DNA from: Eremomyces bilateralis CBS 781.70
Lineage: Eukaryota
NCBI GenBank assembly: GCA_010015585.1
Contig: ML975150.1
Reading direction: 5' to 3' (one strand)
DNA: 64,000 nucleotides
Part shown: in pieces, positions 20,137-48,264 of the stretch
Layout of the letters: each line of letters begins with the position of its first letter
How positions within the stretch are numbered: position 1 is the first letter of the stretch
Position numbers and translations under genes: made by a program
Notes under the pieces: model-generated
Databases searched by the model: none
Seen by the model: the letters and a program-made list of their open reading frames with translations, nothing else
What the model was told of the DNA's origin: nothing

Positions 20137-20346
20137 TGTCAAGATCTGATGTCATTACTTAGTCATCCGTTTCCCCGCTTCGGCTATTACTTAGTCATTC
20201 GTTTCCCCTCTTCGGCTATTACTTAGTCATAGATAGTTATATCTACCTCGTTCGGTACTCTACTTCTTACACAAATACAAGCACTTTACATTCTTCGTCA
20301 CGTAACCTATTGCTTCCGTGTGGATAGACACGCTAAGCTATCAACA
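20137..20346. mobile_element. Solo LTR, family C, with an internal 32-bp tandem repeat (20154-20230)
   Basis: TGTCAAG...TCAACA termini; TSD ATGAC (20132-20136, 20347-20351); unit ATTACTTAGTCATYCGTTTCCCCKCTTCGGCT about 2.4 times. Confidence 0.8.
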
Positions 20347-21036: not shown

Positions 21037-22306
21037 ATGGTGGACGCTGGACTCGCCTTCGAGGCCTTCACGATGCGACCAGATGAGTCCAAGAGAGGAC
21101 GTCTGTTGGCCACCATGACTCCTCTTTTTGCTGTCGCGGTACTTACGTATATTGGGCGTATGTACACCCGAACACGTCCGGTGGTGAACCTTCGATGGGA
21201 CGACTTCGTCATGTCGCTGGCGGTAGTAAGTCCAACTCCCATGATCAGACGGAGCATTACAGGCTCGTGCTAATATTTTGTAGGCTCTCACCATCGTCCA
21301 TTATGGTTTGGCGGTTTATGCTTTCAACCTTGGCGCTGGACGACATTTCTACTACCTGAAGCCGCCGCAACTGGAGACTGTGGGGCGCACGTTGTTTATC
21401 TTGAATATTATTTGGACATGGTGCATCACGTTTGTGAAGGTCTCTGTTACCCTCATGTTATACCGTACCCGAGGGGACAAGGCGTGGCGACTCTGGCTGT
21501 CGGGGTTCATGGGCTTCCTTGTCGTTATAGGCATTGTAATCACTGCTCTACATTTGGGCCAGTGCAAGCCTGTACGCGCCTTTTGGAATCCACTCATACC
21601 AGGAGCAAAGTGCTGGTCCAATGCAATTGCTGTAAATGTGCTCCACGGTACCTCTGGTAAGTCAAATCCCTATACGTTGAATGACAATGATCAGGGTAAC
21701 TAATAAGGATGTGCAGCGTTCTTGCTGGTAACCGACATTGTCTTATCGCTGTTACCCTTGACATTTATTGTTAAACTTCAGCGACCAAGGCGTGACAAAA
21801 TCGCCATTGGCCTGCTTATGGTTTATTCACCCACTGTCGTCGACCCGGTGCTCGTCCTAACTGAAGACTAGGGCCTCGGTCTCGTCGCCTCAGGAACGTC
21901 CATTGTCAAGATAATTCGCACACCCATACTCGGCACAACCAAGGACCCGATATGGGACCTTCCCGACCTCGCAATATGGGCATGGGTTGAGCTATATATA
22001 GGCATAATGGCAGCCTGCATACCATGCCTGAAGGCACCCTTCGAAAGGTTGCTGAAGAAGACGGGCCTCCTTACCACCACGGGAAACAGGAGCCAGCAGA
22101 ACACAAAAACTGGTAACCTATCCAAGGGATATATTTCCGTGGGCCCAATGGAAAGCGGTTCGGCCCTGGGGGAGGATACGGAATTGAGGGCAATTGTAAA
22201 AAAACAGGAGGTGTACATTGAAGAATACAGTCAAAAGGATGCGAACTATCCTGAGTATCCACCGAGGGGCCTGTACCGCCACGATGGCATGGACAGCAGA
22301 TGGTAA
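21037..22306 (+). CDS. PTH11-like integral membrane protein (fungal rhodopsin domain), multi-exon
   Basis: RMYTR...LRWDD, GAGRH, FVKVSV, QCKPVRAFWNP...KC, TDIVLSLLP, WAWVELYIGIMAACIPCLK motifs; GT..AG introns. Confidence 0.85.
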
Positions 22307-23915
22307 ATTCGGAACAGAATGTCAATTGGTTAAAACTTGCACAAATTTATAGATTATAGAGTATCTACCAGTTGGAGCTAGGTTTGGAATACCAAGATGT
22401 ATCTCTGAAGTCTGTCGTCCAGAGCGGCATCCTCGTCCGAGTGATTGGGAGAAATTTTGAGATGCCTTGTCGCTGATCTCAACGCTGGCTTCGGTACAAT
22501 CGTCGACTGCGTGTTATGACAATGGTATCCTGGAGATACGTCAAGTGGTTGGTTCTCTTGGAGAGGAGTGTCAAGGCAATGAAGGCTTGGTAGCAGATAG
22601 GCGAGTGAGTAGACTGAATTGATTTGCAGATATCAAGTCACAACGTTATACCTGTATAACTGGTACATTCCTCTGATTCAACGGGTGGATCTTTGCAGGC
22701 TTATCGCATGGATGGGCGACTTTGATGAATGGTCGGAATTTCAACCTCATCCTAGCTCTACCGGTACCACGCATTCCGCAAATTTCAAGTTTTGATTGCA
22801 GACGTTCCTGGGGGCGGTCGAAGACCGTGCTAACCGATTTAGGCGCGTGCGGCTCAGCTCGCATGTCTGGGGCGGGGTGGGCACGGCTGCGAAGAACGCC
22901 ATAACAACCCGCCACTAGCGGGGCGATCCTTAATCGAGATTAACGCCGCCCTAGTACCTGTAGCGTCCGCGCCCGTTCTATGTCTGGGACCAGAGATAGC
23001 GTACAGTAAAATTCATGATTCCGGAATCCGGCAATATCCCGAACAAGGGTACAGGTAGCTATTCTAGCTTGATCTGGACACTACAGATCGTCTATGGTCT
23101 CCCCATAGTACATGGAAAAGACTTCTACACCATCCCTCAGCTTAGCTATCAACATTTGACATACCACGTTGATGTGTGTTTACTCTGTTGACCCCTTTCC
23201 CAACGATTGCCATCTTTCCCCCTTTCTCTTCATGGAATAACGTGTTTGGTACCATCTCTCCTGCTCCGTGTCAGTATGTATACCGGTCGTTGCCCTACCA
23301 TGTCATCTTAATGAGACTATCGTACGGAGTACTGACTCTTGGTCACCTTTGAGACCACGAAAGGTTTTGACTTTTGTCACAGCACCAGCCGTCCAGCCAC
23401 CAAGACATGTCACATGGAAAACGGGTGCAGGCCTGCAGGGGGCGGCTCAAGCAACTTGCAGCAATAGTCGGGTTTGCGCTGGACGCCACACCCATGGAGT
23501 TGCATGGGAGATGTGCCTGTCAATGTTAGTTAGGGGTAGAAACCTTGCTATCAACACCTCCCTCCGTCCCTCGGCTCCTACTCCCTTTCATCTCTGTACT
23601 GTTGAGCCGTTGAGGTGGTCACCCTTGCCATTTCATTGCGGGTCGCTCACTAATTGCATGGAATGCCTCGCTGTTGGACAGGCTCAAGCGCAAGCGAGCT
23701 GTCATGAGTCGTGACCGTAGCAAGTGGCAACCCCCGAATGCCTTTCCGACATCTATGAAAAATTTCAATATCATAATAACATAATTAAAATGAGTATAAC
23801 TATGTGCAGGGTTGAATGAAGAAGTGGATAGTTGAGACCTCGATGAGGCGGACTAAAGGCATTCAGTTACCACTTCACGATGCCGATACCAGTCAGTTCT
23901 ATGTGCTTCGCAACC

Positions 23916-25203
23916 TTAGAAATAGATGTAGCAGAGAGGCCCGTCCATTGTGTCCATGACGTCCCGAATCGGCAGAGTTGGTCCATTCACGCCCATATCA
24001 AGCATGTCATCAAGCGATGTATCGCGACTTGGTGGATTGTTGAACATCGTAATGGTACCTGCAATCGCGTCCAGTCGTGTTCTCCGGTTCAGGTTTTGCC
24101 AAATCCACCATAGACGGTCGAGTTGAGCGTGATGCAGGAAGAAGTATGGATCACTATCACTTGGTTAGAATCTTGCCGAATATTGTTAGGGTATTCTTAC
24201 GCAGTGCTGGTGAAGATATCGGCGCCAGGCTCGCCGTTGATAAGATAATGGCCGGCAGCATGAACACCCAGGAAGTAATTGGGTCCAGGAGTGACATTGC
24301 CTTGCATCTTATCTTGGAACTGCGCAATAGTCGAGCTTTGGATGAGAAGGCTGGCTACCCTCAATGCTGACAATCCTTCAGATGCCATGGAGTTCAAAAG
24401 TGATCGCCGAAGACATCTTGGATTGTACCCTAAGCCGTCCGGTTGTGGGTTTGGCGTAGCGTCGTCAAAGGACGGGTCCACGGGACCAATATTGACTGTT
24501 ATGTTTTGGAACGCACCGGACGTTACGCAGCCACCTCCACCCTCCTGCGGGATGACCTGGAAGGGCATAGAGACTGAAGGAATGTAGATGCCACTAAGTT
24601 GCTTAAAGTCACCATCGCCGCCGATGGAGGTGCTACTGCCGTCGAATAGAGGGGCAGCTTTGGCGTTGCTCGCATACTTGGACCAGTTGAAGTATGGAAG
24701 GCTGCCAGTGTAGCCACATTCGTTTTGAAGTGCTTGCTCAAAAGTGCGTATGAAGTATCGATGCCAGGAGAGAAAGTTTCCCTGCAGAAAGTTAGCTATG
24801 CTAGGCTTCACTAGACAGTTATATGGCCTACCGTGAAGTGAATTTGCTGAGTGTTAAGAACGTGGGTCACAACAAAGTCATCGTATCGGTTCCTTGCACC
24901 AGGGGCGCCACTTTTCGAAGGTTTGTTAAACAGACAAAGCACGGAATCCAGATAGTGACGTTTCGCAGGGCTGCTCAGATTATCCCATTCCATCCTTTTT
25001 GCGCTACCGAAAACGTTGCATGAATTGACTGAGCGCGCCGCTCTGGCGGCCACGGACCCGACGCTCGTGGGGTTGGCGGTTTCGTCCACGAGGATGTTTC
25101 TCAAGGCTTGTTCAGCGAGGTCATCGAGTGGCGTTGTGTCATCCTGAGCCCACGCGAACTGGGTGCCCAGGAGTAAAAGGGGATAAATAGAGAGTAGCCG
25201 CAT
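23916..25203 (-). CDS. Secreted tyrosinase (di-copper centre), multi-exon
   Basis: Signal peptide MRLLSIYPLLLLG. RYDDFVVTH..IH / FLSWHRYF (CuA), GYNPRCLRR, GVHAAGH and FFLHHAQLDRLWWIWQ (CuB). LCYIYF stop. Confidence 0.9.
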
Positions 25204-25469
25204 CGTAAAACAAAGTGAACGACAGTAAAAGAAAGTACTGATCTGCAAAGAGAATATTCGACAACAATCCAAGAACTTTTCATCGGTACGTACCTTATCT
25301 TTTATAATGAAGAGGATTAAGAGCCAGGATGCTCGGATCACACCACGTGTCGCCCCTGTGCCTTGGCTAATTTCGTTGTATGCACAGGCAGCCGGAGATA
25401 AGTATGTTAGAGTATTGGGCTATTGGCAGTCACTGACTCACCAGAGAGGTCTAAACGGAGAGGCTGCGA

Positions 25470-25691
25470 TGAAGAAATTATGTCCCGCCTGGTCTCCGGA
25501 GAACCGGATCTTTTCATATCCAAGCTTCTTCTTGCCGGTGTCATTTTCGATGCCCTGGAAAGCAACCTCCTCCTTGTTATCGGCATCCCATGTACCGTAT
25601 GTGATAGTATAGCATAGGGAGGTATTGGATCGTCCTCAGAGAACTTCTTGAGACTGAATGTGCCAGTGTCGCTGCGTTGTAGGAGTCGCAT
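25470..25691 (-). pseudogene. HET-domain gene fragment (frameshifted, truncated)
   Basis: MRLLQ...IPPYAILSHT, then in another frame EEVAFQGIENDTGKKKLGYEKIRF; no downstream WVDTCCI motif visible. Confidence 0.75.
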
Positions 25692-26010
25692 GGTTACCTA
25701 TTATGGAGAGGCTTGATGCTTGCAAATCGCAACTGGTGGAGGCGTGGAGATCGGGTATTCCCTGCACTCGGGCTGGTACAGACCGTCCAGTGCTCAACTT
25801 CTCTGCTAGTGCCGTAATAAAATAGGGATAATTTGTCAATAAGCCACGTGGGTCTGTACTTAAAAAGAAAAATATCGCGCTAGCGGAGACGGGATGTTGC
25901 CGGTAATAGACTAATAGTGCTATTTGGGGGCGGGAATTCGGGAGCTACCGGTAGTCACCCACCCTCCTCCTTCTCGATCCTGGCAAAAACGAAGCAAAAA
26001 AACAAAAAAA

Positions 26011-26040
26011 ACATACAGCAATGGGAGTTCCCCTATGGTC
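26011..26040 (-). rRNA. 5S: 3' fragment of a split 5S rRNA gene, followed by a Pol III-type T tract
   Basis: Minus strand GACCATAGGGGAACTCCCATTGCTGTATGT, then TTTTTTTGTTTTTTT. The 3' GCTGTATGT pairs with the 5' ACATACGGC of the half at 46689. Confidence 0.9.
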
Positions 26041-26144
26041 TCCCAGCGGTATAAACGAGGTCGAAAACAGAGGGTCAATACCGCCGAAAGACGAGGGCCC
26101 GTCGAAAATACACTCTGGTAAGGATCGTAAAGATGCCCTTTCTC

Positions 26145-26284: not shown

Positions 26285-28112
26285 TTCTCCCTAGTTTTCC
26301 AGTCTCGCTCTCAATCAGGAGTCCTGTTCGCAGTTTCTACAATCTCGCCCTCAGTCAGGATCTCCGTTCGCAGTTCTACAGTACTCTTCTTCAGTTCCAG
26401 TTCCATCGGGTTCGGAGGTAGTCGACACTATCAACGCTCCACGCAGCCAAAATCCTCGGCGTCTATTCCAAGATACGTCTTTGACTATGGCGCCACGACG
26501 CACTATTCGAAAGGGCGAAGCCGGAGAACAAGAGGCAAAGGAGCTTCTAGCTGGCTTCCAGAGCAAGCCCCTCGACGATACGGTCCCAGTGTCGGACAGA
26601 ACTACCTACAAGCGCGGCTACGCCATGGGGCTCTTCAAGGAGTACGAAACACCTGGACTTATCATGCCTATGACCTACACTCACATCCTCTAGATACGTT
26701 CGAGACGTCCTACACCGCGAGCCGGACGATACCTGGTTATCCCTTTGCAGCTCTTCACCAGTAGAGGTAGCCTTGGCTCAGGATACATGTCGTGCCTTTC
26801 TCCAGACCTACGTCTCCGACTCTTGGGACTCCCGGGTTGCGTTGGGAGATCAAGAATCCGAGGAGGTCTGACAGGTTAATCGAGCATCATCTGTCCTAAC
26901 AGTTGTGGAGAGCTCTTGTGCAGGAAGGAGATGAATCAGTCCTTGCACCCAAAAGAAGAGAGAACAGGCATGCCGCGAGGCAATGGAGGCTCGTCAATCC
27001 AAGTGGAAAACTGATTTTAGGACCCGTGTGGGAGATACCTAATGTAAGGTCTGCCCTCTATTTGTGCGGAGAAGGATACTAACGTCCCTGTAGTAGATTG
27101 TCCACGACCTTCCTTTGCTTACCGGTATCTCTAACGAACTTAAGCGCCAAAAGCGGGCCGCGACTGCTCAGGATATAGTAGTCATTATGCAGGCTCTCCT
27201 GAATCGACACGGCGATATCCTTCACTCTACGGCACAACTTAGCGACTTCGCCATGATCGTGCTCTGTATGGCTATTGGCGGATTCCGGACCGACTGTCCT
27301 AGAAACCTGAAGTATGCAGACGTCAGGATAGGGCTCGCTAACCTTAGGGGAAAACGAACGCGTTCGTACGAATCCGAATGCCAGAAAACAATCTGCGAGT
27401 GGCTTCCCTAAAGCCTGCGAGCCCCAGGCGCGAGTTTGCCGTGACCATTTTGCCATGCCGACTGGTCTGCCTTACTAGTCACATCATTGGCCGCGCTCTA
27501 GCACGGCGTACTTTCAGGGCCGGATATACGTCCTTTAGTGAAGTTTTGACCTAGCCGAACCTTCGACGTTGCAAAATTCTTTTCCTTCTGTGGGCACAGG
27601 GACTGAACGATTCCCCATTCGTCGATATCAGCGGGTCACAGTTCTACAGGATATGGTATCGCTACTACGAAGTCGCCGGCATAGAGGATCCTCCGATCCC
27701 CTACTCTATGCGGGTCGGTTCCGGGGGCAAAATTATCGGAATTCTCGGCGAGCTGCTTGAGAATTGGATGCTTATACACAAATCGAATACCCACCAGGAG
27801 TATTATTTCCCGGACTACATGTCTCAGAATCTAACGTGTGTCACGCTGGGCGTGCTCGCGCCTCCTGAGGATCAGGCGGTTGCATATATTGTTACATTGC
27901 TTGGCGCGCAACTCGCAAAAAAACTGCCAAATTTGGGTAACAACTTTTGCAATCGTATAGAATCCTGGATTTCGCCTCCAATACGCGTATCTATATCAAT
28001 TTGACGCGTTTTTGTACCGATTAGCGTGTTTATCGTGATGCCTGACAGGTATTAGTCTATATCTGTTGCGGAAGACGTGTTTTGATGATAATCTAGAGCG
28101 GCATCGACGCCT

Positions 28113-29246
28113 ATACGCCCCCCGCGAGGAATCGATGGAAGCAGGCGGTCTAAACTCGCTCGATATCTCCTTCTCAATTGGGATAAGAAGGAGATAGCCG
28201 ACGAGCTCAAAGTCAGTCGGAAGACAGTCTATAATTACGAGAAGAACATCCTTCCCCACGGTTCAGTTCGAGCGCCTCCGACAGGGCGTACTCTTGGACG
28301 ACAGCGGCGAATGACCCGAGCGGATGAGGATGCACTCCTACAGAAACTGTTATATGATGGATGGTCATACCTAGACGAGATGGTATATTGGTTATATATG
28401 GAGAGGGATGTCAGCGTTAGCCAGTCAACGGTCTGTCGAATGCTAAAGAGACGTGGATGGAACCGGAAAGAACTCCATCGGATTGCACAAGGGTAGAGCC
28501 GTGAGCTCCGGGATAGATTCAAGCAGGAGATGAGCCAATACGATACGGAAGATATCGTCTGTCTTGATGAGGCGATCTTCAACGACAAGACGGGATGGAG
28601 ATACCGCGCCTATGCACCCCGAGGGCATACCGCGAATACCTATGATACGGTGCGTCGAGGGGAGACTCACGGTGTAATTGGGGCATACTGTACGGATGGG
28701 CTCCTGTGTGTGGGTATCAAGAAGGGGTATTATTCGCGCGTTGACTTCCTTGAATGGCTCCGGGATACGCTCCTACCGTCGTTGGCGCGGAGATCACCAC
28801 GACCTCAATTGGTATTAATGGATAACGTCTCTATCCATGTTGCCGAAGAGGTGATCCAGATGATCGAAGCAGAGGGACATCTGGTTCTGTTTTCACCACC
28901 GTACTCACCAGATTTTAACCCAATCGAGATGGTGTGGTCGGTCCTGAAGGCCTGGATTCGACGCAATCATCTCTTCGTTAGAGAGCGCTTCCCTAATTAC
29001 GCTCTGTTCCTCCATTTCGCCATTCGAGCAAGTCGGTGCGATAGGTTCGCACTAGAACACTTCCATCACGCTGCAGATGGAACATACTTAGATGCTGATC
29101 AGCTAGAGGAGCTTCAGCAGCAGCTGTTTGAATATGAGACTGGGGAAGGATACACCGAAGAGGTCCCTATAGCTAGGGAGTTTCCTGTTGCTGAAGCGTT
29201 CCCTATCGTCGTGCGCGACGACGGGCCTGACGATAGAGATGTTTGA
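28113..29246 (+). pseudogene. DD34E transposase (IS630/Tc1-like) with one in-frame TAG at 28494
   Basis: HTH KEIADELKVSRKTVYNY; CLDEA, LMDNVSIH, PPYSPDFNPIEMVWS. Hand count gives 34 residues between the second D and E. Start position is approximate. Confidence 0.88.
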
Positions 29247-29487
29247 TGACAGCATCCCTTTGTTTTAATTGACTCATTTTATATATTGTCTCGACACTCT
29301 AGGTAGTAATAATATAGCTTCTGGATAAGTATGTGGTCTCAAATACCCCGAAAGAGAGAGCGCTGCCGAGATTCGAACCCAGATTATCTGTTCCCCCGAC
29401 CACCCCGCCGAGGGACTAGTGGGGACAGGCAAACGAATGAGAGATAGGGAAAGAAGGCATGATCTAGGAACATCCCGTGGTAGAACT

Positions 29488-32131
29488 TCATATAGGATCA
29501 TCCCGTGGAGGGAGGAAACCTCCTCCGGTTCCGGTTACCCTCGGATTACGCATATCCAGTAGGGCGGATGCTGTTCTCGCAGCATCGATATGGCCCTTGC
29601 CCTTAACCTCGCTCTTGAACAGGCGTAGATCTGACTTAAACTGACGTGCCATACCGTCAGTGATACCCTTCGCTAGAGCGAGTGAGTATAACCGTGTATC
29701 TGGATCAGACATAGTCTTCATATCATCTAGCGTCCAGTCGTTTTGTACAATGGTCTCCTTAGCCCGCATCAATTTATCCTGACGTATCTCCGATTGCGTG
29801 TTCCGGATCTTCCAATCAAAGAACTTTATCACTATCTCGATATCGTCTTCGTCCGTGTTGATGGGGCTCGATGGAGCGCTTTGGGAGATGGGGGCGACAG
29901 AAGCTTGACGAGGGCGGTGGTCTTGAGCAGACTGAGGGCGATATTCAGTGTTCGCGAATGTGGTAGGCGGATGGTTGATATCCGACGGTGGCCCGCGAAA
30001 CTGATCTACACTAGATATCGTTAATACCAAGCTAATTCAGGTAACAGATTACTTACGGAGTGCGATGATGGTCCGATCCAGGAAATTGGAACGGCGTGCC
30101 GGCGTCGAAACCACGTCCGTATAACGACGATTGCCCGTATGGAGGGCGAGCCATAGACACCTGTTCTGCCATCTCTCTTTGTTCCTGACGTTGAGATCGT
30201 CGCTCGTTATTCCTCTGCATCTGTTCCTGCATCTCCATCTGCATCTGTATCTGTGTCATCTCCATTATCTGTTTCTGAGTCTCCTGGAACGATTCCATCA
30301 TCGATTTCGACTGCTGTGCGGCAGATAACTGCTTTGGGCGACGAGCAAGCTTATTCACGGCCCCATCCTGTTGCCAGACACGAACCAATTTGACAGGCGG
30401 GCTGGTCAGCGTTGCGTCTCCTGCGCGTATCGCGTTAGCCCAGGACTGCTGATGGATAGCGGTCATGTTATAATGGAGATGATCTGTTGGGTCAACCCAA
30501 CAGAAACCACGCCAGTTGTTACAGTTCTCGTCGTGGCACTGCCATCGATCGGTGATCTGTTTCTCATAGGCGCCAGCCACTTGTATACGCTCCATCCGAG
30601 CGTCCTGTTGAGATAACAGGTTCTGCGTACGACGAGTGGTCTTTGAGGAAGAGTCCGGGGCAGAAGGCGAGCTGGTAATCCGTACAGGGAGAGCATGATC
30701 TTGTGCTTTTGGAGTCGCTGTCTTTATACGCTTTTTTCCCTTAATACCCTCGCAGGTTATCCGGACAGAGAATATCACCCGGACTGGGGAATGGGGCCGT
30801 TCGGTAACGATATCCTCCGACATCGTATGGATACGTTTCGCGACGACTTCAGTAAAGTCCGTGATAGTCTGAGTCTGTATAGAACCACGCCCGGAAAGTG
30901 AGCGGCAAGAGACATCGAGATCACCGTAATCCCAATCCTCCCCATCAGTCCTCTCCTCAATCTTCGCTGATATCTCATCCTCAAGGACCGCGATATCAAA
31001 CTCGCTCGCACGGGACTTCTCTTTCTTCTCATCTCAGGCCTTCTTCGCATTGATATAGAGGTACCATTCAAGAATTATAGTCCAATCGAGTGGGACGGTA
31101 TCGAAATCTCTGTTTAATCGGCCGGAGGCGACTTCGTCGTTGACCTCTGACGTCGTCGGCGAAAGAATGACCATCTGTTCCCGGTGTTTCTTTAGCGCAC
31201 GCTTATCCATCTCAAGCTGGAGATGGTAATCGGTCGAGTCCTGGAGAGGCCTGAACCAGTCTCCCCGTTCAGGATCTTGATCATGGGGGGCCTATCCTGT
31301 CTAGCCCTGGTACGATCAATACCGGTCGAGAGGAATTCTTCAATCCCCTGTTGGTCTACAGGCGTCCTGATATGTGGCTGACGTTTTTGGCGCTGTATAA
31401 AACGGATGTCCTTGCCCGCCTTCGGCTGACCTTTCTATTTCTCTAGTTCCTCCCTTTGCATCCTCTTCGCTTGCTCGTGGTCCCGGGTAACCCCAGCTAG
31501 ATCATCGCAGATGACACTATATGCCCATGCTCTACCCGGTCGGTTATCTGGTGCCAAGTCACTGTCTAACCAGGCCTTATTCGAAGCGATAGTCGGGGAG
31601 TTATCGACATAACGAGATATCCCTGCTTGCCCTGGGCGCCTCTGGGCGTTGGGAGTAGTATCCACGTCGGTATCTGTATCATCCTCCTCTACTGATTCTT
31701 CAGTGCCAGTCTCCTCCTCTGTAGGAGGAGGTTGGCTACTTCCTCCGGACTTTTTAGCAGGTTGCTGCTTCGCCCTAGGTTTAGGAGGAGCGGTCGTTTT
31801 CTTTCGTTACCGTGGTCAGTTGCTCGGTCGTATCGCCGGATGAGGTTTCCTTCGACCGTTTAGCTCGCTGTTTTGGTGGTGCTTTGGGCTTAGAGGTGGC
31901 CTTTGACTTCGCGGCGGGTTTCTGTGCCGGTTGACTAGGAGCCTTCTGTTTCCGGGCCGGAGGAGCCAACACCTCCTCGTGGCGGTCTGCAATATCATCT
32001 CCAGCGTCTTCGTTCACGATCGGGTCCTCGAAGGTGACTCGACGACGGTTAGATCGGAGTCCATACGAAGGTGGAGGTATGAATTGAGAAGTTTGGGTCT
32101 TGCCCTTGGTCTTGGGGGGAAGAGGAGGCAT
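29488..32131 (-). pseudogene. Second gene of the TIR element: large unknown protein with a Cys/His motif (stops/frameshift; intron ~30011-30056)
   Basis: ORF pieces 31781-32131, 31435-31665, 30053-30823 and 29488-30030 chain together. Motif RWQCHDENCNNWRGFCWVDPTDHLHY...WANAIRAGDATLTSPP. Confidence 0.65.
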
Positions 32132-33632
32132 CTTGACCGGTCTGGCGTTCCACCCACGGTTAAGGAGGTCAAGATTACGAGAAATAGATCGATTCGTCAT
32201 ATAGATCACGATAAACACGTTGATGAGTATGAAAACACGTTAATTGGTACGAAAACGCGTCAAATTGGTATGGGATATGTGTATTGGGGGCGAAATCCAG
32301 GATTCTATACGATTGCAAAAGTCGTTACCCAAATTTGGCAGTTTTTTTGCGAGTTGCGCGCCAAGCAATGTAACAATATATGGATATGCAACCGCCTGAT
32401 GCCCTTTTCTCCCTCCTGGCGGATTTGTCTTCCACGGCGGATCCCCATGCCCCATGCCACCTGAGTGAGGACGAGGATAAAAAGCTTCTTGAGCGACGAG
32501 ATGTGCAAGCTCTCCAGGACCATAAAACGGGACAGCGCAACCTATTGGACCGGTTATCTTTCTTGGCTATTCGAGAGAAGTAGGAGAAATACTTTCGCAA
32601 GGTACAAGATGCAAGGGCGCTGGGCGGCAATATCACCATTGCCGAGTTGCCAATTTCGAACAGCGATGTCATCGTTGATGCAACGCCCGTTGATGAAGAA
32701 GGCCGGGCTTCATTTATTAAGTTACTGGCTAGCTACCCCCGCCTTTTGAAGAGAAGTAAGAGGTATGACTCTAACCGAAACGCTCAAGATCCATGTCCTC
32801 GGTCTATCTGTGTCCTTTGCAATCCGACTGGGAAGGTTTTATCTTTCTCACAACATTCGTCTCTCACCAGGCACTTTCAGATCAAACATTTACGACATCA
32901 TCACCTAGATCAAGGACGCGAATGCCCAGTTCCTGACTGTGGCCTGACTATTGACGCTGGTGTATCTCCGTTTTACTGTCACTTAGAACGCCAGCACGGC
33001 AAACACTATACACCCGCTGCTCATCGACGCATCGAACGTTCGATCTGCGTCCTCTGCGATCCGACCGGGCGTCAATTGTCCTTTTCCCAGCGCCAAAATT
33101 TGACAGAACATTTCAAGGCTGATCATCTACCCTCGGGCCACCTCGATCAAGCTCGTCAATGTCCAGTTCCTGACTGCGGGTCAATGATTGAAGCTGGAAT
33201 AGACCCCTTTTGCGGTCACTTGCAGTGCACGCATGGGAAGCATTACACGCCTCATCTGTGCAAAACTGGGTTAAAGCAGCGTGAACATCATCGATCATAT
33301 AAGCGAGTTCAACCAGCATCCGAACTTCAGAATAAGAGCACAGTTACGGTTAATGTAAAACGGAAAGCAGATGATGATACCGGGAGGAAATTGACCGACT
33401 TAGGTCTGCTCGAGCAAATGCTCCAGGAGGAAGTCTTTGCTGTACATTCGGATGAAGAACCGGTTACGAAGAAACGAAAGCAAAACGGAGTTGCAGATTA
33501 TTGAAGAATTCTAAGTTGGGTAACAGTTGACAGCATCGGTATCATAAAGCTCGTCAATGGAATTGGGATATAACTTAGGAGAAAATTGCAGCGTAAATCA
33601 TCTTCTTCCAACCTTCGATGCTATATATGTGA

Positions 33633-37320: not shown

Positions 37321-38699
37321 CTAAGCACTTATATTGCATTCAGCATTATGTTCTTGACTTTCAAGTACACTCTGTCTCTTGGGGAGACTTGATAGGTTAC
37401 AATGAAATCTCTCATCGCCGTCTCCGTGCTGCCCATCACTGTGACTTTCACCACTTTCGTCTTCCTCTGATGTTAAATGATCACCTCGAAATGAGGAAGC
37501 AAAGGATGATGATTTATGATCAAAGCTCCTCTGTCTCTTCCTGCCTCTGAAATCTTCTTCGCTGCACGTTTCAAGATCTTCTAAGACATCGTCCCGTTGT
37601 CTCTTCTTTGGGCTTTGGCTCCTGCTCTTGACTCGGGCGGCAAAAATATGCCTACATTTGTCGCCAGACGCGTCCAGGATCCTGCTCGAGCCATCCTCTC
37701 CGTCCACAAGAACAAGCCTTCGTGAAACTCCCTGCCGTAAGAAAGTACTCTGTGCAAGAATAGTCCAAGCAAACCGAGCGAACAGACACTCCACGCTTAC
37801 ATCCATAAGTGGCTGCAGCGTGACATTATGGTATAGTTTCGCAAGCTCTCCTGTCAAGCCAGGGGCAAAGACATGGACAACCCAGGAACTCCCTTTAGGT
37901 ACAGCAACCAACCATTTCTGGTCGAACACAGTGTGAATATCCGATCGTAGCAAAATGGAGTTTCGAGCATCATCAGTTGGATCGGTCATAGTGGCGGGAC
38001 GAGAAGTGTATTGAAACATCATGTTTGAACTGAACCACGGCTCCTCACTCCGAGGAATGAGATGCGCAGCTTCCGTGCCCTCAGTGTGGCTGGTTACTCT
38101 GCAAGAAACATCGCGGGACAAGAGGATCTCTGTCAGGCCGCTCTGTCGTGGTAAGATGTCGGACCTGGGGATGCGGAAGATGTCCGATTTCCAAAAAGGT
38201 GGTAGGTTATCGTGGGGGAATTGAAAGTGGGCAAAGGATGGGATGATAGGGTATTTAGGATCTGAGAATAGTTTATGTTAGTTAGTATGTGGAATATAGC
38301 GGTCCAGCGAAACATTAATCCTCGAGACATACCGTCATCAGGGTCCTCTTTGATCCGGAAATAGTAATTCTTCAGCGTTAGGAGGGAGTCTGCCTCCGCT
38401 GCAATTCGTCGTCCTTTTCTCGTCTCTGTCAAAAATCCTTCCCAGGTGCAATTTGCAATTATCGCACAAGCAATCCTTGCCGTCTCGTGATGAATGCCCC
38501 CTTCAGAGCTATCCAGTGCTGGCAATACGAGAAGAATATTGTTTGTGTCTGGATATCCTGGATGGCGAAAATGCACATTGTATGAGTCATTGTTCTTAGG
38601 AAGAGAGGCACCAAGATCCGAGTGCGTTGGTGGTGGGTAGGGTTTGCGAGCTTGAAAGTTGGAGGAGATCGAAGCGGATGGAAGAGTGGTATTTGGCAT
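37321..38699 (-). CDS. Fungal HNH endonuclease-domain protein (HNH_2-type), 2 exons (intron 38262-38332)
   Basis: FRHPGY...GGIHHETARIACAIIA, YPIIPSF..FPHDNLP, RDVSCRVT...AAHLIP...NSILLRSDIHTVFD, LFARFAWTI. The frame looks intact after splicing. Confidence 0.85.
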
Positions 38700-39029: not shown

Positions 39030-42000
39030 TGCGCAGCGTAGCGGAGCAGTTTAAAATCCAAATGGGGCTCCTTTTCCAAAAAAGCACACACGCTCATTGG
39101 TCAGTTGAAAACTCTCTGTGATTGGTCCAAAAATTTCCTTGGCAAAATGATTGGCTGAGAAAAGGGTCCGGAAAGTTCCGTGTCTCTGTGATTCGTCCAA
39201 ATTACTTGGCAAAGTGATTGGCTGAAAAGTTCTTCCATCTCCGAACTCTGTGGACTTCGTTGTCGTCGCCGTCGCCAGGTCCTGCGCTCTCGTTACCTAC
39301 ATGGAGCACCTTTTCACTACTATCACGGCATCAGGCGAATCCTACATTTGGGGGAGTGAGACATAGCATCGTAAGGTATAGACAATTCGACAATGCAGAG
39401 TAGTTGAGTCTCACGGACAATGTCCATAGAAGAAAGTGAAGAGAAAGAAAGCAAGATCCTCGAGACATCTCCGGGCATCATCTATGTTCTTATACCGGCC
39501 GACAGTCCTGAAATCATCTACACGGACACTCGTTGCCTTCATCGTGTACGATACAGTGTCGTCTTGAGCGATTCCATCCCTCAAAATCAACCAGAGGAAG
39601 TCATGCGGGCGAAAGACTGTAGAAACATATGTGCATGTGGTCGAAGGTGGAAGAGTGAATGAAGTAGGGCCGGTCACATAGATTCTACTCAGCTCCTCTG
39701 CTTAAAATCTATTTGTTTTTTCATCTCTTACTCACAATTTTCTTCTCTACCTTATCGCTTTCCTGGCACCTTTGTCGACTCTCTATCAATTAACTACTAT
39801 CGGTCTAGCATCACAGTCTATATTGTCAATTGGAGATCTATCAAAGCGATCCCGCATGGCGGAGGTCAGCCTAAGTACTATACCTCCTCCTGGAGGTTAT
39901 GCACCCGACCCCCCTTCCGATGTTCCCGACCCATCCAATCCACTGCATCGATGTATTCACTGTAAACATCGGAAGGATGCTGCTTATGACCTGAAGCGCA
40001 ATGGAGAGTATTATGCTAAGTGTAAGGCTTGCCGTGAGAGTCATACATCTTCTGTAAGTGTGTTTCGAAGTCCCGCATCATATTCAAACTAATATTACCC
40101 TAGAGGAAGCGCCCTCGCTATCAACGAGATACAAGCGCATTAATCCAGAGGCAAGTGAAGCCTCGTCTACAGTCGGAAGGATTCTTTCCCCGAGGTCAAC
40201 ACGAGGAAGATACTCCTTCTCAAGCAGCAGTTCGCAGAGACTTCGTGGATATTCAACGTGAGCACCGTTCTCGCAGGAGACACGGTGAGATTGTCTCTTC
40301 GACGCCCAATTTCGATGACTTCGTTACACAACGGACGCGTCCGCCTGGACAGTATCCTGGCGCGACCCATGTTCCATCCCGGACTCCACCTAATCTGTCC
40401 CAGCTTGGAAATCCAATCTTTCCGCCTATTGAAGACGAGCAGGAGGATGGTGAGCAACCTGTCCGCGGTCCAATCTTCCGCCGATACTCCCTACCTTCAC
40501 TTCGCGGTCGAACTCGGAATCTATCTCGGTTTACTGGATCAAGCGCTCGGTCCGAATCCTCTAGAGGTTTACTTCGCGAACTTCAACCGCCTCCTAGCCA
40601 GGAGGCTCCCGAACTACAATACTTTCTGTGTAGACTCTGTGACACCTACCGTGAAGAGTCTCGGAAAGTGAGACATATGGAATCGTGTACCTATTGCAGG
40701 GATTATACTCCTGTATCTGAGCGTACGCAGTGGTGTTTGCAAGGTGGTCATGAAGTGAACCAGTCTTCGTGCATGGAAGATAAACAAGAGCAAGGAGCAG
40801 ATTCCGAGGCCTTATATTTCCTCAACTGTGTATCCTGTCGTCAAAGTACAGACGGGTGGATTAATAATGACCATCGCCGGAGAGCCCCAGAGCAGTCTCA
40901 ACGCCGCTCTAGCTTGGATCCTCCGAGAAGTCGCACCCCTTCGCGTCCAGGTCCCCATCGACGCGCTCGAGAACTTGCTACCGCGGATCTACTAGCCCCT
41001 AATCCTCCTATCGATTTCTCTAGTCTAACTCTCGGAACCACGGATCCGGCACTCACCGAACGCGATAAAACGCTTATACAGAACTTTCATCGAAAGGTCG
41101 ATTCTGTTAATATGGCCACCTGTGTCCGCTGCCATGAGCGATGGCTTGGGATAAGCTACGACGAGAACGGTGTTTGCAAGTCATGCCTTACCATTGATGC
41201 AAAGCGTGGCCCCGACGAACCATATCTCTGGAGCGATGAGAACAATGCCGATCCCGGGGAATTTCCGGATATTTGTCTCCCTAAGCTTTCTCAGATCGAG
41301 GAGATGCTTATCTCGCGTGTCCATACCTTTGTTGAGGTTCGGCAATACCGCGGCCAGCAGTACAAGTACTCTGGTCATATCTGTCACTTCCTCTCGAATA
41401 CTGCACGCGTTTATGCGCGTCTCCCTCTCTTGCCTAGAGAGCTAGATGTTATCATCCTTCGCCCTTCTAATCATGCTACGGATCCAAGGGTTAATCGTCA
41501 ATTCATTCGCGATTATCGAGTGCGTCGTAGCGCAGTGATAAAATGGCTCTACTTCCTTCAAGAACACCATCCTGCCTATGCTTCTATCGACATTGATCTA
41601 ACTCGACTCGACGCCTTGCCCGAAAACGGCTCAGTTGAAGAGGACCTGCTTATCTATGACCACCAGGATGAGCCCAATGTTGAAATGCAGGCAGACGACT
41701 TTGACGACCCAGAAGACGACGATATATCCCCGCCGCAAGCCAGTGCAGTCCCGGACTTGAACCCGGACCGCCAAGAGATCGATCAGATGCGTCTTGAAAT
41801 TGGAGCACGTAGAAGGGAACGGCTCCAGGCCAGTCAAGCACCCTTCATGACCATGCCATCCCTCCGTGCGACCCCTCTTGCAGACTTGAACAAATCAGTC
41901 CCATGTTTGACATGGGCTTTCCCTACACTGTTTCCATACGGGAGGGCGGAGTTTGCCACGCCAAGGATCCGAGCTATCAAGTACAACGAATTCGTCAAGC

Positions 42001-45000
42001 ATCTGCTTCTCTACAAGGATGGACGCTTCGCACAGCACCCTCGCTTTCGATATGTTGTCTTCAATACAATCATGAGGAGCCAAGTCAACTCACGCGCGAG
42101 CTTTTTCGTCAAGAAGATCCGCCCTGGTCCCACTGACTTAACAGTTGACGATCTTCGACGAGCTTTCGAGGAAGATACTCCAGAAGCGGAAGCTATGGTT
42201 AACTCTATCTCCCGTTACTCCGGCAGTATGCGCGGCACCCGTTCATTTTGGGCAGGAAAGCGTCGGGCTTTAGAAGCCGGTGTCCGACAACTCGGGTGTC
42301 CGCATCTCTTTATCACCTTCTCTGCAGCCGATTATCACTGGGATGATCTGATGCAATCCATGCCGAACTACGAGTAGTGGAAATCCGCCACTTCAGTACA
42401 ACGTATTCGCATTGCTCGTGATGCGGTCCGAGATAATCTATTGATTGTCGCGAATCATTTCCACCGTCGTTTCGAGGCCTTCCGGACCGAGGTGCTTATT
42501 CCAAAGTTTAACATCGTCGACTACTGGCATCGTTTCGAATGGCAATCACGCGGTAGTACCCATGACCATGGTTCATATTGGATGGAGGGTGACGGCTTAC
42601 CTAGTCCTGAACTTCAAGACAATATCGACCAACTGACGGAATTTGCTCGGTTTTGGGGAATCCACATCCATGCTATCAATCCAGACCGTGGGCGTGATTG
42701 GGTTCGTCCTGAGGAGAGGTCAGAACTGCAGATGCCGTTTGCGGACCAACCGAACACACTGCGCCATCTTTCCAACCTACTGAACCGTGTTCAGGTTCAT
42801 CATTGTACTAGGCAATATTATCTTCGTACTAATAAGACGACTAGCATTGAGGAGTGTCGTATTAAGGCCCCGTGGCCCATTACGACTACGCCAGAGATGG
42901 TGAAGGATCCTGGAAGATCGTGGTACCGTTCCCAATCCGAACGCAATGACCCAAAGCTCAACCAGTACAACCCGCTTATTACTAAGGCATGGTGCGCCAA
43001 TACGGACATCCAGCCCTGTACCGGTAAAGATGGAGTTATCTTCTATCTCGGTAAGTACACTACCAAGGCCGAAGAGGCATCAGAGTTATATCGTGATATG
43101 ACTTCAAAGCTCCTTCCGCGTCTCAATTCGAATCGCCCCTACCAATCACTCGTGGAAAAGACGATGAATCGTCTCGTAGGCGAACGGAATTGGTCTGCGC
43201 AAGAGATCTGCCATCTTCTCTTAGACCTGCCTTTGTGCTCCCAGAGTCGGATGGTCATCAATGTTGACTGTCGCCCGGAGCAGCAGCACGCTGAGCTCCA
43301 CTTCCTCGAGGATCATGAGAGCGGTGTTCAGGTTCGCGCTGGCAAGTCACTGCTTCAGAAGTATAAAGATCGTCCTCCGGAGTGCGATAGCATTACTTAT
43401 CTCGAGCTTCTGCGTGAATATGACCTCCAGAAATACCGAAGGCGACCTCGTGCTTCGGAACGGGTGTTGAACTTCTTCCCACGCTATCGTCCTGAAATCG
43501 ATCCAGAGAACTTTGCTCGAGTAAAGTTGATGTTGCACCATCCGTTCCGTGAAGTCGATGATCTAAAGGCATACCTTTACGATCCAGAGAAGACTTGGGA
43601 TACGTTCTACGAGGCTTAGGAAGAGTGTAAAACGTTTCATGAAGGCCATACTCCCGACGGGTATGAGGTGGAGATGCTAACGGGGGATAATGATGAGGAG
43701 CCACTCGATTCCGAGGAGGAGGATATTCTTGCTTCCTGGCAAGAGCTTGCACAAGTTTGCCCCGGTCGAGATAGTGCGCAGGTCGAGGACCCTGACCGCA
43801 TTGGCGACCGAGACATCGACCGTGCATATATCCTTGATGGCATGATCGGTAACTATCTCGACCTCGATGTCGAGTTCTGGAAACGGATAAAGGCGGACTT
43901 TCCGGCTAACTTAGTAGCCGTTGCTGCTGGGACATATGCTAGCCTAAATGGCAAACAGAAACTCTGTCAGGACCTCGTCATGCGTCACTTTCACGCCTAC
44001 CAGGAGCACCGGCCTCCGCCTCAGCTCCTGCTAAGCATCGATGGTAAGGGTGGGACAGGGAAGACGTACCTTATTATGATCCTTTCCGAGGCGCTTGAGA
44101 CTGTCGCGAGTGCGATAGGGCATACTACCTCCCCAATCGTTCGGGCTGCCCCTACCGGTGTAGCCGCGCATAACATTTCGGGTAAGACCCTTCATTCCCT
44201 ATTCCGCCTCACTCCGAAGGCCAAGCAGTACGAAAAGTTGTTAAAGCAAGCCGCTCAGGCTATTCAGACTGCATTCAAAGGTGTTCAATATATCGTCATT
44301 GACGAGAAGTCAATGGTTGGCTTGAAACTTCTTGCTTGGATTGACCGTCGATGTAATGAGATTTGGCCTGATCGTAGTGACCGTCCATTTGGTGGCCTCA
44401 ACGTTATCCTAGCTGGCGACTTCTTCCAGCTGCCGCCCGTTGGCGAGAAGCCGCTCTTTACCAGCCAGAACAACATTTCAAAGAACATCGATGAGAGCCA
44501 TGGCCATAGACTCTATTAAGGCTTCTTCCGAACAATTGAGCTAGACGTTGTTGTCCGTCAGCAGGGACCTGAGGAGGCAATGTTTCGAAATGCACTCGAA
44601 GACTTGCGAACCGGGAATGTCACGGTTGATAACTGGCGCCTTCTTGCTACGCGAGTTGCTTCTACTCTCTCGCCCAGTGACGTCTAAAGCTTCCAGGGTG
44701 CCCTTCACGTCTACGCCAAGAAGGCAGACGTCATTCAATTCAACCATACACAGATGCGCGAAAGTGGCCGACCAGTTGTCCTGATGATTGCAACTAATGA
44801 GGGGAAAGGTGCAGCGAGCGCCACTACCGAACAAGCCGGCAACCTGCAGAACACCTTCCCTATATCTATTGGTTCCGTGTCATGCTTACCGAGAATATCT
44901 GGACCGAACGAGGATTGGTAAACGGTACTATGGGTAATGTACGCGACATGGCCTGGGAAGCGGACGTTCAAGATCCCCGGAAGTCGCCTCCCACGGCATT

Positions 45001-45979
45001 ACTGGTTGCATTCGACAGCTATGATGGTCCATCCTTTCGAGAGGTTAACGGTGAAAAGCTCGTGCCTATATTCCGGTCCCGTCGAGACTTCGTTCGCGAT
45101 TCTGTCGCCTGCCTGCGTACCCAGTTTCCAATGGTTCTGGCGTATGCTATCACCATCCACAAGAGCCAGGGAATGACACTAGAAAAGGCAGTTTTGAACA
45201 TCGCTGATAAGCGGGACTTTGCGCCGGGATTAACTTATGTAGCTGTCTCGCGTGTTAAGTCGCTGAAAGGGGTGTTATTCGAAGAATCGTTTGATCTACC
45301 GCGATTGCGCATGCAAGTAACTGCTACAACTCAAGCTAGGAACGATGATGTCGCTCGGCGCGCATTGTATCACGTCGCGTCCTCCGTACATACTACATAC
45401 CGTCTACTCCTTGCGCAGCATGGCTAATGTGTCTATACAGGATCCTCAGCAATTCGCGGTCGGTTTCATGCCACCGCCTCTACGACGTGTTTAACTTCCG
45501 ATCCGATCATCCTCTCCACCTCGGAGGTCGTCCCCGCTACTTGCGAGTGAGATCGATACACCTACAACGGGGTCTAACCCGTCCGGCACTCAAGGTTCCT
45601 GAATGGAGATTTAGAGTGCTTAAAAACGTTCATAGTTTGCTTGATCGTCCCATCAATCAAAAGAACACCTCAATAAGGTTGGTTGTTAGGTGCAACCTGA
45701 GTAAGCGGGAATCGCTTGATTCATATCCTCTATAACGTTGCGGATATGGAGTCTGCGTAGATAGATCAAAATCAACGAGTTATAGTATATCATCTGCTGT
45801 TTATTTCATTATGTGGTTTAGCTATCGGTGAAACCAGTACTAATAAGCGCGTGTGATTGGCCGTAGAGGATCAGGACTTCATCAGCAAACTGTGGCTGGG
45901 TATGCTGTTAAAACTTGGGAGGTTCTGCTCCCTACGCTGCGCACCCCTTGGGTCCATTTATGACCCTCGGGCGTATTTT
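39030..45979 (+). mobile_element. Helitron2/FoHeli-like rolling-circle transposon with asymmetric terminal inverted repeats
   Basis: TGCGCAGCGTAGCGGAGCAG (39030-39049) versus CTGCTCCCTACGCTGCGCA (45925-45943). 3' hairpin CCCTTGGGTC/GACCCTCGGG (45945-45971), then ATTTTT. Exact ends uncertain by a few bp. Confidence 0.82.
39856..45427 (+). pseudogene. RepHel: HUH Rep endonuclease plus PIF1 helicase, with four in-frame stops and one frameshift
   Basis: LFITFSAAD, FEWQSRGSTHDH, YLGKYTTKAE (Rep motifs). GKGGTGKT, APTGVAA, IDEKSM, GDFFQLPPV, AITIHKSQGMTL, YVAVSRV (PIF1). Stops at 42375, 43617, 44517, ~44685; -1 shift near 44878. Confidence 0.92.
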
Positions 45980-46400
45980 TCTGGATGTCTGGTTCCGAGT
46001 ACCATCTTTTAAGACCATCACCCTTTGTCACTCTCCTGCGCACGTAGGCCCGGATATCATCAGTGATAAGGTCACTCTGAATAGGAATTATGTCGTCCAT
46101 ACGAGCAAATTTGCTGATTATAGACTCGATGTCTCGTTCTTGGCGGCTTGTCACAAGGAGATGGACATTCTTTCGGTAGGAGCTTTGGAAATCTTTCATC
46201 CACGAGAGCAATCCTTCGCTTGGCGACCCTGTCCTCGCGTTGCATTCATCAAGAGCATCGAGAACAATCCAGACTTCTTTTACTTGCAGGATCATCTGTA
46301 AGAAAGTCTTATAAAGTGCTTCACACGATGGTTGTCGATGTCCGTCTTCGTAAGAGGAAAGGAGAGTCTGTAAAGCTATCAAAGTATCTCCAGAGTGTAG
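45980..46400 (-). pseudogene. NACHT-domain gene fragment
   Basis: QPSCEAL..TF..M...VWIVLDALDEC...HLLVTSRQERDI...DDIRAYVR..V...LKRW; truncated at both ends. Confidence 0.8.
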
Positions 46401-46584
46401 GGCAGTCCAAATGAGCTCATCTGGATTAAATGATGAATTACGGAGGTGTACGAAGGGAGGGATTGCCGGGGGCGCAAAACATAAACCAACCATCTAATTC
46501 CCCGTAACGTATCCCTCGCTGACTAAGAATGTATGGTAACATTGTTGGCCAATGGCAGACAAGCCGAGTAGTACTACAGTGAGA

Positions 46585-46689
46585 GAGTTCCCCTATGGTC
46601 ACCCACCGTAGTACTATTCCATCTCTAACCTGCTTGAGTACGGCAGAGCGGACGGGATGCCCTATATTCAGGTTGATGTGGCCGTATGT
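46585..46689 (-). rRNA. 5S: 5' 105 nt of the split 5S rRNA gene
   Basis: Minus strand ACATACGGCCACATCAACCTGAATATAGGGCATCCCGTCCGCTCTGCCGTACTCAAGCAGGTTAGAGATGGAATAGTACTACGGTGGGTGACCATAGGGGAACTC. Contains the fungal 5S signatures CCCGTCCGCTC and TGGGTGACC and the helix AACCTG/CAGGTT. Confidence 0.93.
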
Positions 46690-48264
46690 ATCAGAATCTG
46701 AAGCCTTTCCAAATATAAACCTAGATTCTGGACTCATTCGCCTGCTTAGCGGGTCTGCTCAGTTTTTGCATCGGCTCCGATCTTCACAAAACGGAACACG
46801 AGCAAATAGTCGAAATGATCGAAATGATGAGCGAGAGAATAATTGTTTAACACGCGTAAGAAAAGCGAGGAGATCTGATGTACACCGAAGATAGCGCATT
46901 CTGAAGCGGCTGATGACTTGAGAATAGCTTTGCGTAGACTTGAACTGCAAGGGGTGCGTCTCCGAATTGCTGGATCGGCGCTAGAATCGGAGGCAGACGA
47001 CATCGTCGTGTGCGAAGTTGAGGTTATAAGGCATTTTTCGAAGGGAGAGAGTTATGCCGCATTTGATATATCACACGTCATGTCGCGAGTCTCCTAGGGA
47101 CATACTAGGAGCTACAGATGCCCAGCCCCCGCCACACCAGAGCTCTTTCGAACTCGTTGGTCAGACCTTCAAATGGCGTGCCGTTTGGAGGTCCAGCCTG
47201 TTTGTATCTGTACGATACCTCTTAAAGTGAATGGGAAGATTGTGAGGGCCTGGAACGAACTGTACACATTAGTTCTCATCAATGTGCGCATCTGATTCGC
47301 CAGACTGTTGTAGCATGAATATCCAACAGCTGCGACGCGTTACTTTTATCCCTCCTCATCTCATCCATCCCAACAGCGCGTATCCCACGCTCGTCGCGGA
47401 GCATCGACAGCCTCTCGATGCCGGCTCAACAGAAATGCCGACTTGCTAATCATAGGCCATCGCGACGCAGTGCGGCAGCGGGAGCGGAGCCGGTTTGAAA
47501 GTGAACCCTGGAGCGGAACGAGGCTCCACGGCTTCTACATCAAACGAGAACCAACAACGCCGAGTGGAGCCCGCTACGACGGTTGCGCTGGAGACTTTGG
47601 GATTCCGGAGCCTCATCCAGGCAAGATGGCGTCAAAACATGGGATTCACGGTCCTGTTGGAAGAGGACGTTGCGCTTGAGGACCAGTTTTCTGTAGGCGC
47701 CGGTATGGAGCCCGCCCCAAACACACCCCTCCCGCTATCGGGAAGAGCCGCATTGCCGATTCATCCCCCCCATTGGATGCTTCAGCGTCAACTCAGGACG
47801 GTGTGAAACGAAAGTCCATTATGATTCATGATCTAACAATGGTCAACAACACTGACAGGAATAGATGTCTCTCGTGGGAACTGATCGCATGGTGATGCTC
47901 TCCTGATACCTTCGCTAGGCACGGATGCTCTTGGGTACACGGATCTCGGTTCAGCAGGTATATAATCCAGTCATGGACAGCTTCACACTTCCTGTCTTCT
48001 GCTTCATCTTCAGATCCATTCAGTCTTTGCAAACAAAGTCGTGACGAATTTCCTTGACTCATTCTTTCTGCTAGTCGGTTTTCTCTATCTGCTTTGGTTG
48101 CTGGCATTCATCGCTCTCTATATATCTACCGGCAGGTCCAGTCTTTACATACGACCATCCCCAACATTCATTGTTGAAAAGCATTTTATATTGCATTCCT
48201 TCTCGCTCTGTAGCCCACAAACGAACGAATCTCCTTCACGAATCGAACTATCAACCCCGTCATC

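Follow-up and report, generated by a model that had tools for sequence, protein, structure and literature searches.

Tyrosine recombinases act at sites in which inverted half-sites flank the crossover region, and in the classical sites the centre between the half-sites measures 6-8 bp. The att sites of phages and islands, as well as loxP, FRT and dif, are built from imperfect inverted half-sites, and att sites additionally share an identity segment. The closest described systems to the element analyzed here are the Starships, which are mobilized by tyrosine recombinases called captains. Published work, in those parts that were accessible to us, already describes Starships in 5S rDNA, their long direct repeats and their short terminal inverted repeats. 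According to the accessible part of PMC11162782, the Arwing, Enterprise and Voyager elements lie mostly in 5S rDNA, their repeats measure 6-16 bp, and 5S targeting arose at least five times. Terminal inverted repeats are often present in Starships, but not universal (PMC9156397, accessible in part); the available portion of that paper's supplement gives them by length only.

For one Starship, Hephaestus, the accessible portion of a preprint reports that the circle arises when the element's ends are joined at the direct repeat, that this circular form recombines with the target at the repeat, and that a plasmid bearing the circle junction integrates in a captain-dependent manner, with the junction TT//AC (bioRxiv 10.64898/2026.09.21.753150). 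In the 40-mer printed in this preprint, we recognized by eye 12-bp arms, GGTCCCAATATT and AATATAGGGACC, which match at 11 of 12 positions around an 8-bp spacer. The TT//AC junction lies at the edge of an arm; these arms are our own reading and are not stated by the authors in the portion accessible to us (bioRxiv 10.64898/2026.09.21.753150).

Here, we analyzed a locus in Eremomyces bilateralis CBS 781.70 at which one end of such an element mirrors the flank of its 5S target. We use the term window for the whole stretch of fungal DNA that was analyzed, 64,000 nucleotides of contig ML975150.1.

A degenerate Starship in a 5S rRNA gene

An insertion of ~20.5 kb (26041-46584) divides a minus-strand 5S rRNA gene into two parts. 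The Rfam model RF00001 matches minus-strand positions 46571-46689 with 64.4 bits, and this is the sole 5S rRNA gene found in the window. The final ~17 nt of the match are element DNA, however, not 5S. The interrupted gene retains its 5' 103 nt at this position (46587-46689, minus strand), as identified by Rfam and by many-copy depth in sequencing runs. Its true 3' end, consisting of the last 30 nt (26011-26040, minus strand), was recognized by sequence comparison with a second 5S tail that is described below, and is adjoined by a T-run terminator (26004-26010, minus strand). When 26011-26040 is joined by coordinates to 46601-46689, the product folds with a 9-bp closing helix. The Rfam placement and the true 3' end at 26004-26040 together justify the labels "element" and "5S" that the initial annotation had given to the two sides of the right junction.

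Since Rfam aligns the element's end as if it were the gene's 3' end, the interrupted gene passes as a full-length 5S rRNA, its 64.4 bits exceeding the gathering score of 38. 5S gene counts that treat such a score as evidence of an intact gene can therefore conceal Starship insertions.

The insertion is bounded by the direct repeat GAGTTCCCCTATGGTC, which is exact at 16/16 positions (left copy at 26025-26040, plus strand; right copy at 46585-46600) and which reaches 22/24 in an extended form (family D12). As in Starships generally, the flanking repeats match the target; here they correspond approximately to 5S positions 88-103. The element entered the 5S gene by site-specific recombination within this 16-bp block, which is identical in element and target.

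Along with the repeat, a captain pseudogene at the 5' end upholds the original proposal of a tyrosine-recombinase element within 5S rDNA. The pseudogene (26487-33501, plus strand) belongs to the DUF3435 tyrosine recombinases, and was detected by tblastn with the protein P0001 and by a weak DUF3435 match. It starts at 26487 on the plus strand, 446 bp from the element's left end, and reads inward; a DUF3435 captain is thus the first inward-reading 5' gene, as is characteristic of Starships, although the copy in the window is broken. Its coding pieces (26487-27899 and 32392-33501) contain at least three frame changes. P0001, whose source annotation is a hypothetical protein of Eremomyces bilateralis CBS 781.70, is intact, with 793 aa and DUF3435 at E = 5.7e-16. 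Against the window, tblastn with P0001 gives four captain pieces with 71-94% identity, in frames 3, 1, 3 and 1. The window copy is dead, and intact sister captains exist.

A Tc1/mariner-type transposon (27883-32382, plus strand), recognized by its inverted ends and by Pfam, lies within the captain coding region. Its ends are 109-nt inverted repeats that are 96% complementary (pair I2), and its ORFs at 28092-29246 encode DDE_3 and HTH domains. In the captain's C-terminal third (32584-33504; residues ~560-700 of P0001), there are two repeats whose Cys/His spacing resembles that of C2H2 zinc fingers. The backing for these repeats is weak: Pfam zf-C2H2 gives E = 0.05, below the cut-off, one solved zinc-finger-like chain gives E = 0.58, and the Atlas leads are weak.

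Further into the element, Pfam identifies an ORF with an HNH_2 endonuclease domain (37321-38277, minus strand, E = 6e-12), Helitron-like ORFs with Helitron_like_N and PIF1 helicase domains (40104-45427, plus strand) and, near the right end, a NACHT / NPHP3_N fragment (45882-46493, minus strand). The Helitron-like ORFs, which include a DUF6570, run through three consecutive frames and may be a second foreign insertion or cargo. Outside the element, the repeat-rich left part of the window contains an NLR-like gene (11256-13844, minus strand) with an NPHP3_N/NACHT-type domain followed by ankyrin repeats. To the right of ~50 kb, the G+C content is higher and the genes are of housekeeping type (MFS, JAB/MPN, PX, EB1).

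With regard to family, Table S4 in the accessible part of the PMC11162782 supplement lists the P0001 gene as fam09, in a cluster of two members, and Table 1 of that paper equates family 9 with Arwing. The captain's putative link to family 9 (Arwing) runs through this listing of its nearest relative. A HMMER search with P0001 found, beyond fragments of its own species, next relatives that are only ~33% identical. Word-based protein searches with P0001 returned P0001 alone, and a P0001-guided scan of metagenome contigs yielded 56 pattern matches, of which 0 were confirmed. The insertion is a dead, small Starship, and its putative family is known for 5S targeting.

We compared the locus to the 5S-targeting Starships Voyager, Arwing, Enterprise and Osiris (the last in Aspergillus fumigatus), as described in the accessible parts of PMC11162782, PMC9156397 and PMC12153272. 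It resembles them in having the captain at the 5' end, in that the insertion splits the 5S coding region, and in its long 5S-matching repeat (16 bp here, 6-16 bp as reported). However, its target at ~5S positions 88-103 differs both from the Voyager site, which is 20 bp from the 5' start of the gene, and from the 3'-terminal repeat of an Aspergillus niger element. The CCCG/GGGC core of Arwing repeats is also absent, as the 16-bp repeat has CCCC, and the direct repeats of four Arwing-family elements are unlike the repeat found here. In the accessible part of PMC11162782, CCCG/GGGC is a tendency of Arwing repeats, not a definition.

Inverted arms at the right junction

Positions 46566-46619 are the right junction (attR-like) of the degenerate ~20.5-kb Starship. 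In this region, the initial annotation had pointed to a 15/18 inverted match, across 12 bp, between TAGTACTACAGTGAGAGA (46569-46586) and the reverse complement of 46599-46616. We confirmed this match, and found that it grows to 21-nt arms that agree at 17/21 positions. We refer to the element's right-end arm as C (46566-46586, plus strand) and to its mirror on the 5S side as B' (46599-46619, plus strand). Arm B' encodes 5S positions ~71-91, as judged by Rfam and by contigs of another sequencing run that also align to it. The asymmetric 12-bp centre between the arms (46587-46598, plus strand) falls within the right-hand repeat copy (46585-46600), and 0/6 of its positions are symmetric. The 16-bp direct repeat and the inverted arms are centred on one axis, 46592|46593. 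Eight of the 17 matches belong to the self-complementary octamer TAGTACTA; the other positions match at 9/13.

To assess significance, we conducted a census of inverted repeats in the whole window, using 18-nt arms, at least 15 matches and spacers of 0-20. This census gave 3 hits at 2 loci, namely the right junction (counted twice) and 15211; the binomial expectation for the census is 0.46 per window. Based on a per-position p of 3.4e-7, arithmetic puts the odds of a hit that straddles the junction at ~1-3 in 10,000. A separate search of the window for the right-junction arms, allowing up to 3 mismatches, found no matches besides these two, where 0.02 were expected. The right element end thus mirrors the 5S flank well beyond chance, with 17/21 matches and an essentially unique place in the window census. 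The window's only other 15/18 inverted repeat, at 15211-15246, has no spacer.

Several simple origins of the mirror were considered and rejected. Since the match does not extend past 21 nt, it is not part of a longer degenerate inverted copy of the 5S gene. It is also not a natural 5S hairpin, as the mirror's axis maps to model positions 97/98, ~8 nt away from loop D. Finally, an explanation by a terminal inverted repeat plus an extended direct repeat fails: the right end matches the 5S flank at 17/21 positions, but the element's own left end at only 9/21 (by eye). The 5S arm is constrained by rRNA function and also occurs under another organism label; the likeness must therefore stem from the element side.

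We compared 45400-47400 with contigs of three sequencing runs, X1, X2 and X3. A contig of X1 confirms the right junction over 46417-46614 with zero differences. In X1 and in X2 alike, at least two more contigs begin to align at 46548, and the 30 nt that precede this point in them agree with the window at 22/30 positions. By these alignments, related right ends exist elsewhere in the X1/X2 sample. It is important to consider that X1 and X2 are one sample, which is probably the source of the window, and are therefore not independent evidence; among the sequencing runs, the locus was found only in this probable source sample. A 24-nt pattern for the junction had 0 matches in viral contigs and metagenome contigs.

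X3, which carries another organism label, contains only the 5S body, aligning from 46596 rightward, and yielded no empty site. Its 5S copies keep the arm, while the ~9 nt to the left of 46596 (46587-46596) differ. Because these copies share the arm and differ in the centre, the centre is a variable part of the 5S gene. On this comparison, the 12-bp centre would be the part of the target that limits specificity.

Left junctions and a shared inner motif

The pattern TGGGAG-N12-CTCCCA is present at both left junctions (26022-26045 and 19745-19768), as previously noted, but its six-base arms alone are not significant. The best inverted repeat at the left junction matches at 10/14 positions, with p = 3.4e-4 before correction over ~2,500 overlapping tests, and its axis is displaced rightward by 1 bp relative to that of the right junction. 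The element's left-end arm, C' (26039-26059, plus strand), has the inner motif TCTCCCA.

For the uninterrupted target and the circle junction, we reconstructed the sequences from coordinates; symmetry was then scored in all four site forms. The reconstructed target reaches 9/14 and the circle junction 6/7 (TGAGAGA versus TCTCCCA). For the left junction, the target and the circle junction, no symmetry survives correction for the ~2,500 overlapping tests. The earlier suggestion that each junction is symmetric is therefore strongly supported at the right junction (17/21), but at the left it meets only short arms that are 1 bp out of register (10/14). Terminal inverted repeats, a common Starship trait, are likewise absent above chance: 8% of shuffles reach the best local alignment score between the element's ends, which share only TCTCCCA / TGAGAGA.

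When the seven bases next to the 12-bp centre are read toward the centre and in register, they are TGAGAGA, TGGGAGA and TGGGTGA. These heptamers agree pairwise at 5-6 of 7 positions, and give an inner motif TGRGWGA that is common to three of the four arms (C, C' and B'). The fourth arm, in the 5S tail, has TGGGAG one base further in, i.e., 1 bp out of register. By contrast, the outer part, TAGTACTAC, is common only to C and B', in the element's right end and the 5S body, respectively.

The second left junction belongs to what we call remnant A (19757-19870, plus strand), the left end of a diverged sister element, which was recognized by its similarity to the left end of the main element. It is preceded by a second 5S 3' tail (19734-19756, minus strand), which agrees at 27/27 positions with the tail of the main left junction. 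Remnant A has CTCCCA at 19763-19768, and no captain follows. Positions 19724-19830 are 79% identical to 26001-26107, and 19839-19870 are 94% identical to 26285-26316; no similarity between remnant A and the main element was found past these two stretches. Within 19734-26003, neither a 5S body nor a right end accompanies the second 5S tail. This interval contains ORFs with a fungal-rhodopsin domain (21284-22306, plus strand) and an ORF with a tyrosinase domain (24197-24853, minus strand).

Because the 5S tails are identical at 27/27 positions but the element ends are only 79% alike, the most plausible reading is that two diverged sisters inserted independently, and not that a later duplication produced the second left end. 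By arithmetic, the probability of 27 unchanged bases at 21% divergence is ~0.002. CTCCCA and the 12-bp spacing are kept in both independent left ends (n = 2), whereas only 1/6 of the bases just before CTCCCA is conserved between them. This fits the pattern of a conserved arm beside a free centre, for n = 2.

When the sequences of both left junctions are compared, their cores part directly after TTCCCC, in agreement with the initial annotation. However, this divergence does not locate strand exchange, as had been suggested. TTCCCC is where the 5S-derived sequence stops in the older copy, and it therefore gives only a right-hand limit for the crossover there.

Two other observations concern the surroundings of the left ends. 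A stretch ~50 bp to the left of the main 5S tail (25935-25982) is weakly like the uninterrupted target (GGGAG ... GTCACCCACC) in the same orientation, with a borderline score that is reached by 5% of shuffles. Also, CGTCGAAA-like motifs cluster just inside the left ends, with three at 26059-26107 and two at 19782-19830, spaced ~20-40 bp apart. The motif shows no enrichment across the full window (68 occurrences versus 55.7 expected). Such clustered motifs could be subterminal binding sites.

A candidate recombination site and alternative explanations

Most likely, judging from the sequence, the mirrored right end marks where the element's recombinase binds. More specifically, we regard the chances as about even that the junction is an att-like site whose arms are putative half-sites of the captain and whose centre holds the crossover. 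Both 21-bp arms would then be candidate half-sites for the element's tyrosine recombinase. B', in the 5S gene, would let the enzyme find its target, and the mirror arm C, on the right end, would let it hold the element. The inner TGRGWGA beside the 12-bp centre in C, C' and B' would be the core-binding contact, and the outer TAGTACTAC, shared by C and B', would be recognized by a further DNA-binding portion of the captain. The element circle would recombine inside the 16-bp block, with a crossover that may lie within or to the left of GAGTTCCCC, at least in the older sister copy.

In favour of this att-like reading, the mirror axis is the centre of the 16-bp identity block, and related right ends are present in further X1/X2 contigs. 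On the other hand, the 12-bp centre has 0/6 symmetric positions, symmetry is strong at the right junction only, the element lacks a terminal inverted repeat above chance, and a self-complementary octamer contributes 8 of the 17 matches. The arm symmetry could be read at a single right junction, that of a dead copy.

The junction can be compared to classical core sites. Two inverted half-sites around the presumed crossover are found at the right junction (17/21), while the other three site forms are weak. The initial annotation had cited the usual 6-8 bp spacer, which does not apply here: the centre is 12 bp and fully asymmetric. Like the att sites of phages and islands and like loxP, FRT and dif, the locus combines a shared identity segment and inverted half-sites with a conserved RNA gene as target. 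It differs from them in its 12-bp centre, its only partly alike half-sites, its eukaryotic host and its DUF3435 recombinase. Hephaestus, according to our reading of its 40-mer, also has inverted arms that flank the junction. However, the Hephaestus arms are the element's own two ends around 8 bp, whereas here the right end is mirrored by the target around 12 bp. The Hephaestus target, in the accessible part of the preprint, requires only TTAC(N7)A, in contrast to the 16-bp identity block found here.

We looked for precedents in the literature. In the accessible PMC11162782 supplement, the tables before S11-S13 (curated repeats) contain no relevant match to the core or arm motifs; a 6-letter fragment occurs in two unrelated Fusarium terminal-repeat rows only. 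A mirror between an element end and its target flank, or defined captain half-sites, are not described in the accessible literature, which comprises neither Tables S11-S13 of PMC11162782 nor any figures.

An unlikely but serious alternative is that the mirror is a historical by-product. In this scenario, replication that switched templates, or a fold-back repair event, would have copied ~21 bp of neighbouring 5S sequence in inverted form at the right junction of an ancestor. Lying to the left of the crossover, this copy would have been carried with the element since then, with no role in recombination. Such an event would be consistent with a match that is found at a single junction and breaks off sharply after 21 nt, with a target and a circle junction that have no symmetry, and with the lack of a true terminal inverted repeat. 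In addition, the 4/21 mismatches are similar to the 21% divergence of the two sister left ends. However, a by-product would not be expected to have its axis exactly on the centre of the 16-bp identity block, or to share the inner motif TGRGWGA with the left end, in register. Related right ends in other copies also argue against it, though that observation alone fits a by-product too. The original idea that the element ends evolved to mimic 5S is upheld only insofar as the likeness comes from the element side; at this locus, adaptation cannot be told apart from a single event that copied neighbouring 5S DNA in inverted form.

A modified form of the recombination site, which we consider doubtful, would have one strong arm per partner, with C and B' as strong arms and B (the arm in the 5S tail) and C' as weak arms. 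The captain's C-terminal C2H2-like domain would read the long outer motif TAGTACTAC, which would be present once on the element, at its right end, and once in the 5S gene. Lying on opposite sides of the crossover, the strong arms would be neighbours in the synapse. Integration would bring the strong pair together at the right junction and leave the weak pair at the left one, and this sorting would favour stable integration, as with lox66/lox71. In these engineered sites, each partner has one good and one poor arm, and recombination unites the good arms on one product. The arm layout is similar here (C and B' alike, B and C' weaker), but it is a natural sequence pattern only. The TAGTACTAC region of the 5S gene is presumably also bound by TFIIIA, by analogy with other eukaryotes.

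A role at the RNA level appears very unlikely. The interrupted 5S gene would be transcribed into the element from the internal RNA polymerase III promoter, which we take to lie within the retained first 103 nt. The arm would then pair with loop E / helix IV of the truncated 5S RNA, and this pairing would neutralize the defective RNA or shape its 3' end. Indeed, the hairpin is predicted in both the minimum-energy and the centroid structures of a 220-nt read-through RNA, the chimeric 119-mer is also predicted to form it, and two of the four mismatches would be G-U pairs on the 5S sense strand. However, the overall fold is no better than that of shuffles (z = -1.39), such folding is expected of any inverted repeat, and two G-U pairs among three transition mismatches are approximately what chance would give.

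Chance resemblance is highly improbable. The second 15/18 inverted repeat at 15211 and the contribution of the self-complementary octamer to the score are what might be cited for it, but neither the rarity of junction-straddling hits nor the agreement of the axis with the centre of the repeat would be expected.

In bacterial islands within tRNA genes, the element's end replaces the displaced 3' part of the gene. It is scarcely credible that the element here similarly supplies a replacement 5S 3' end that keeps the gene functional: although the full 120-position Rfam model spans the junction with a score above the gathering score, 4/9 closing-helix pairs are non-standard, the chimeric sequence lacks the closing helix that the reconstructed gene forms, and the arm is not followed by a T-run, the nearest stretch of four lying ~95 nt beyond it. 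In contrast to gene-restoring elements of the tRNA/tmRNA type, the element's end thus leaves the 5S 3' end unrestored.

Returning to the att-like reading, the Starship literature, in its accessible parts, covers direct repeats, short terminal inverted repeats and a circular intermediate, but not defined binding sites. A compact candidate site of ~54 bp, for which an intact sister captain is known, bears on the question of how captains recognize their ends and targets. Should the arms prove to be genuine half-sites, the high specificity for one 5S variant would be explained, and the crossover could be mapped with their help. In that case, 5S-targeting captains might also be useful for site-specific integration in fungi.
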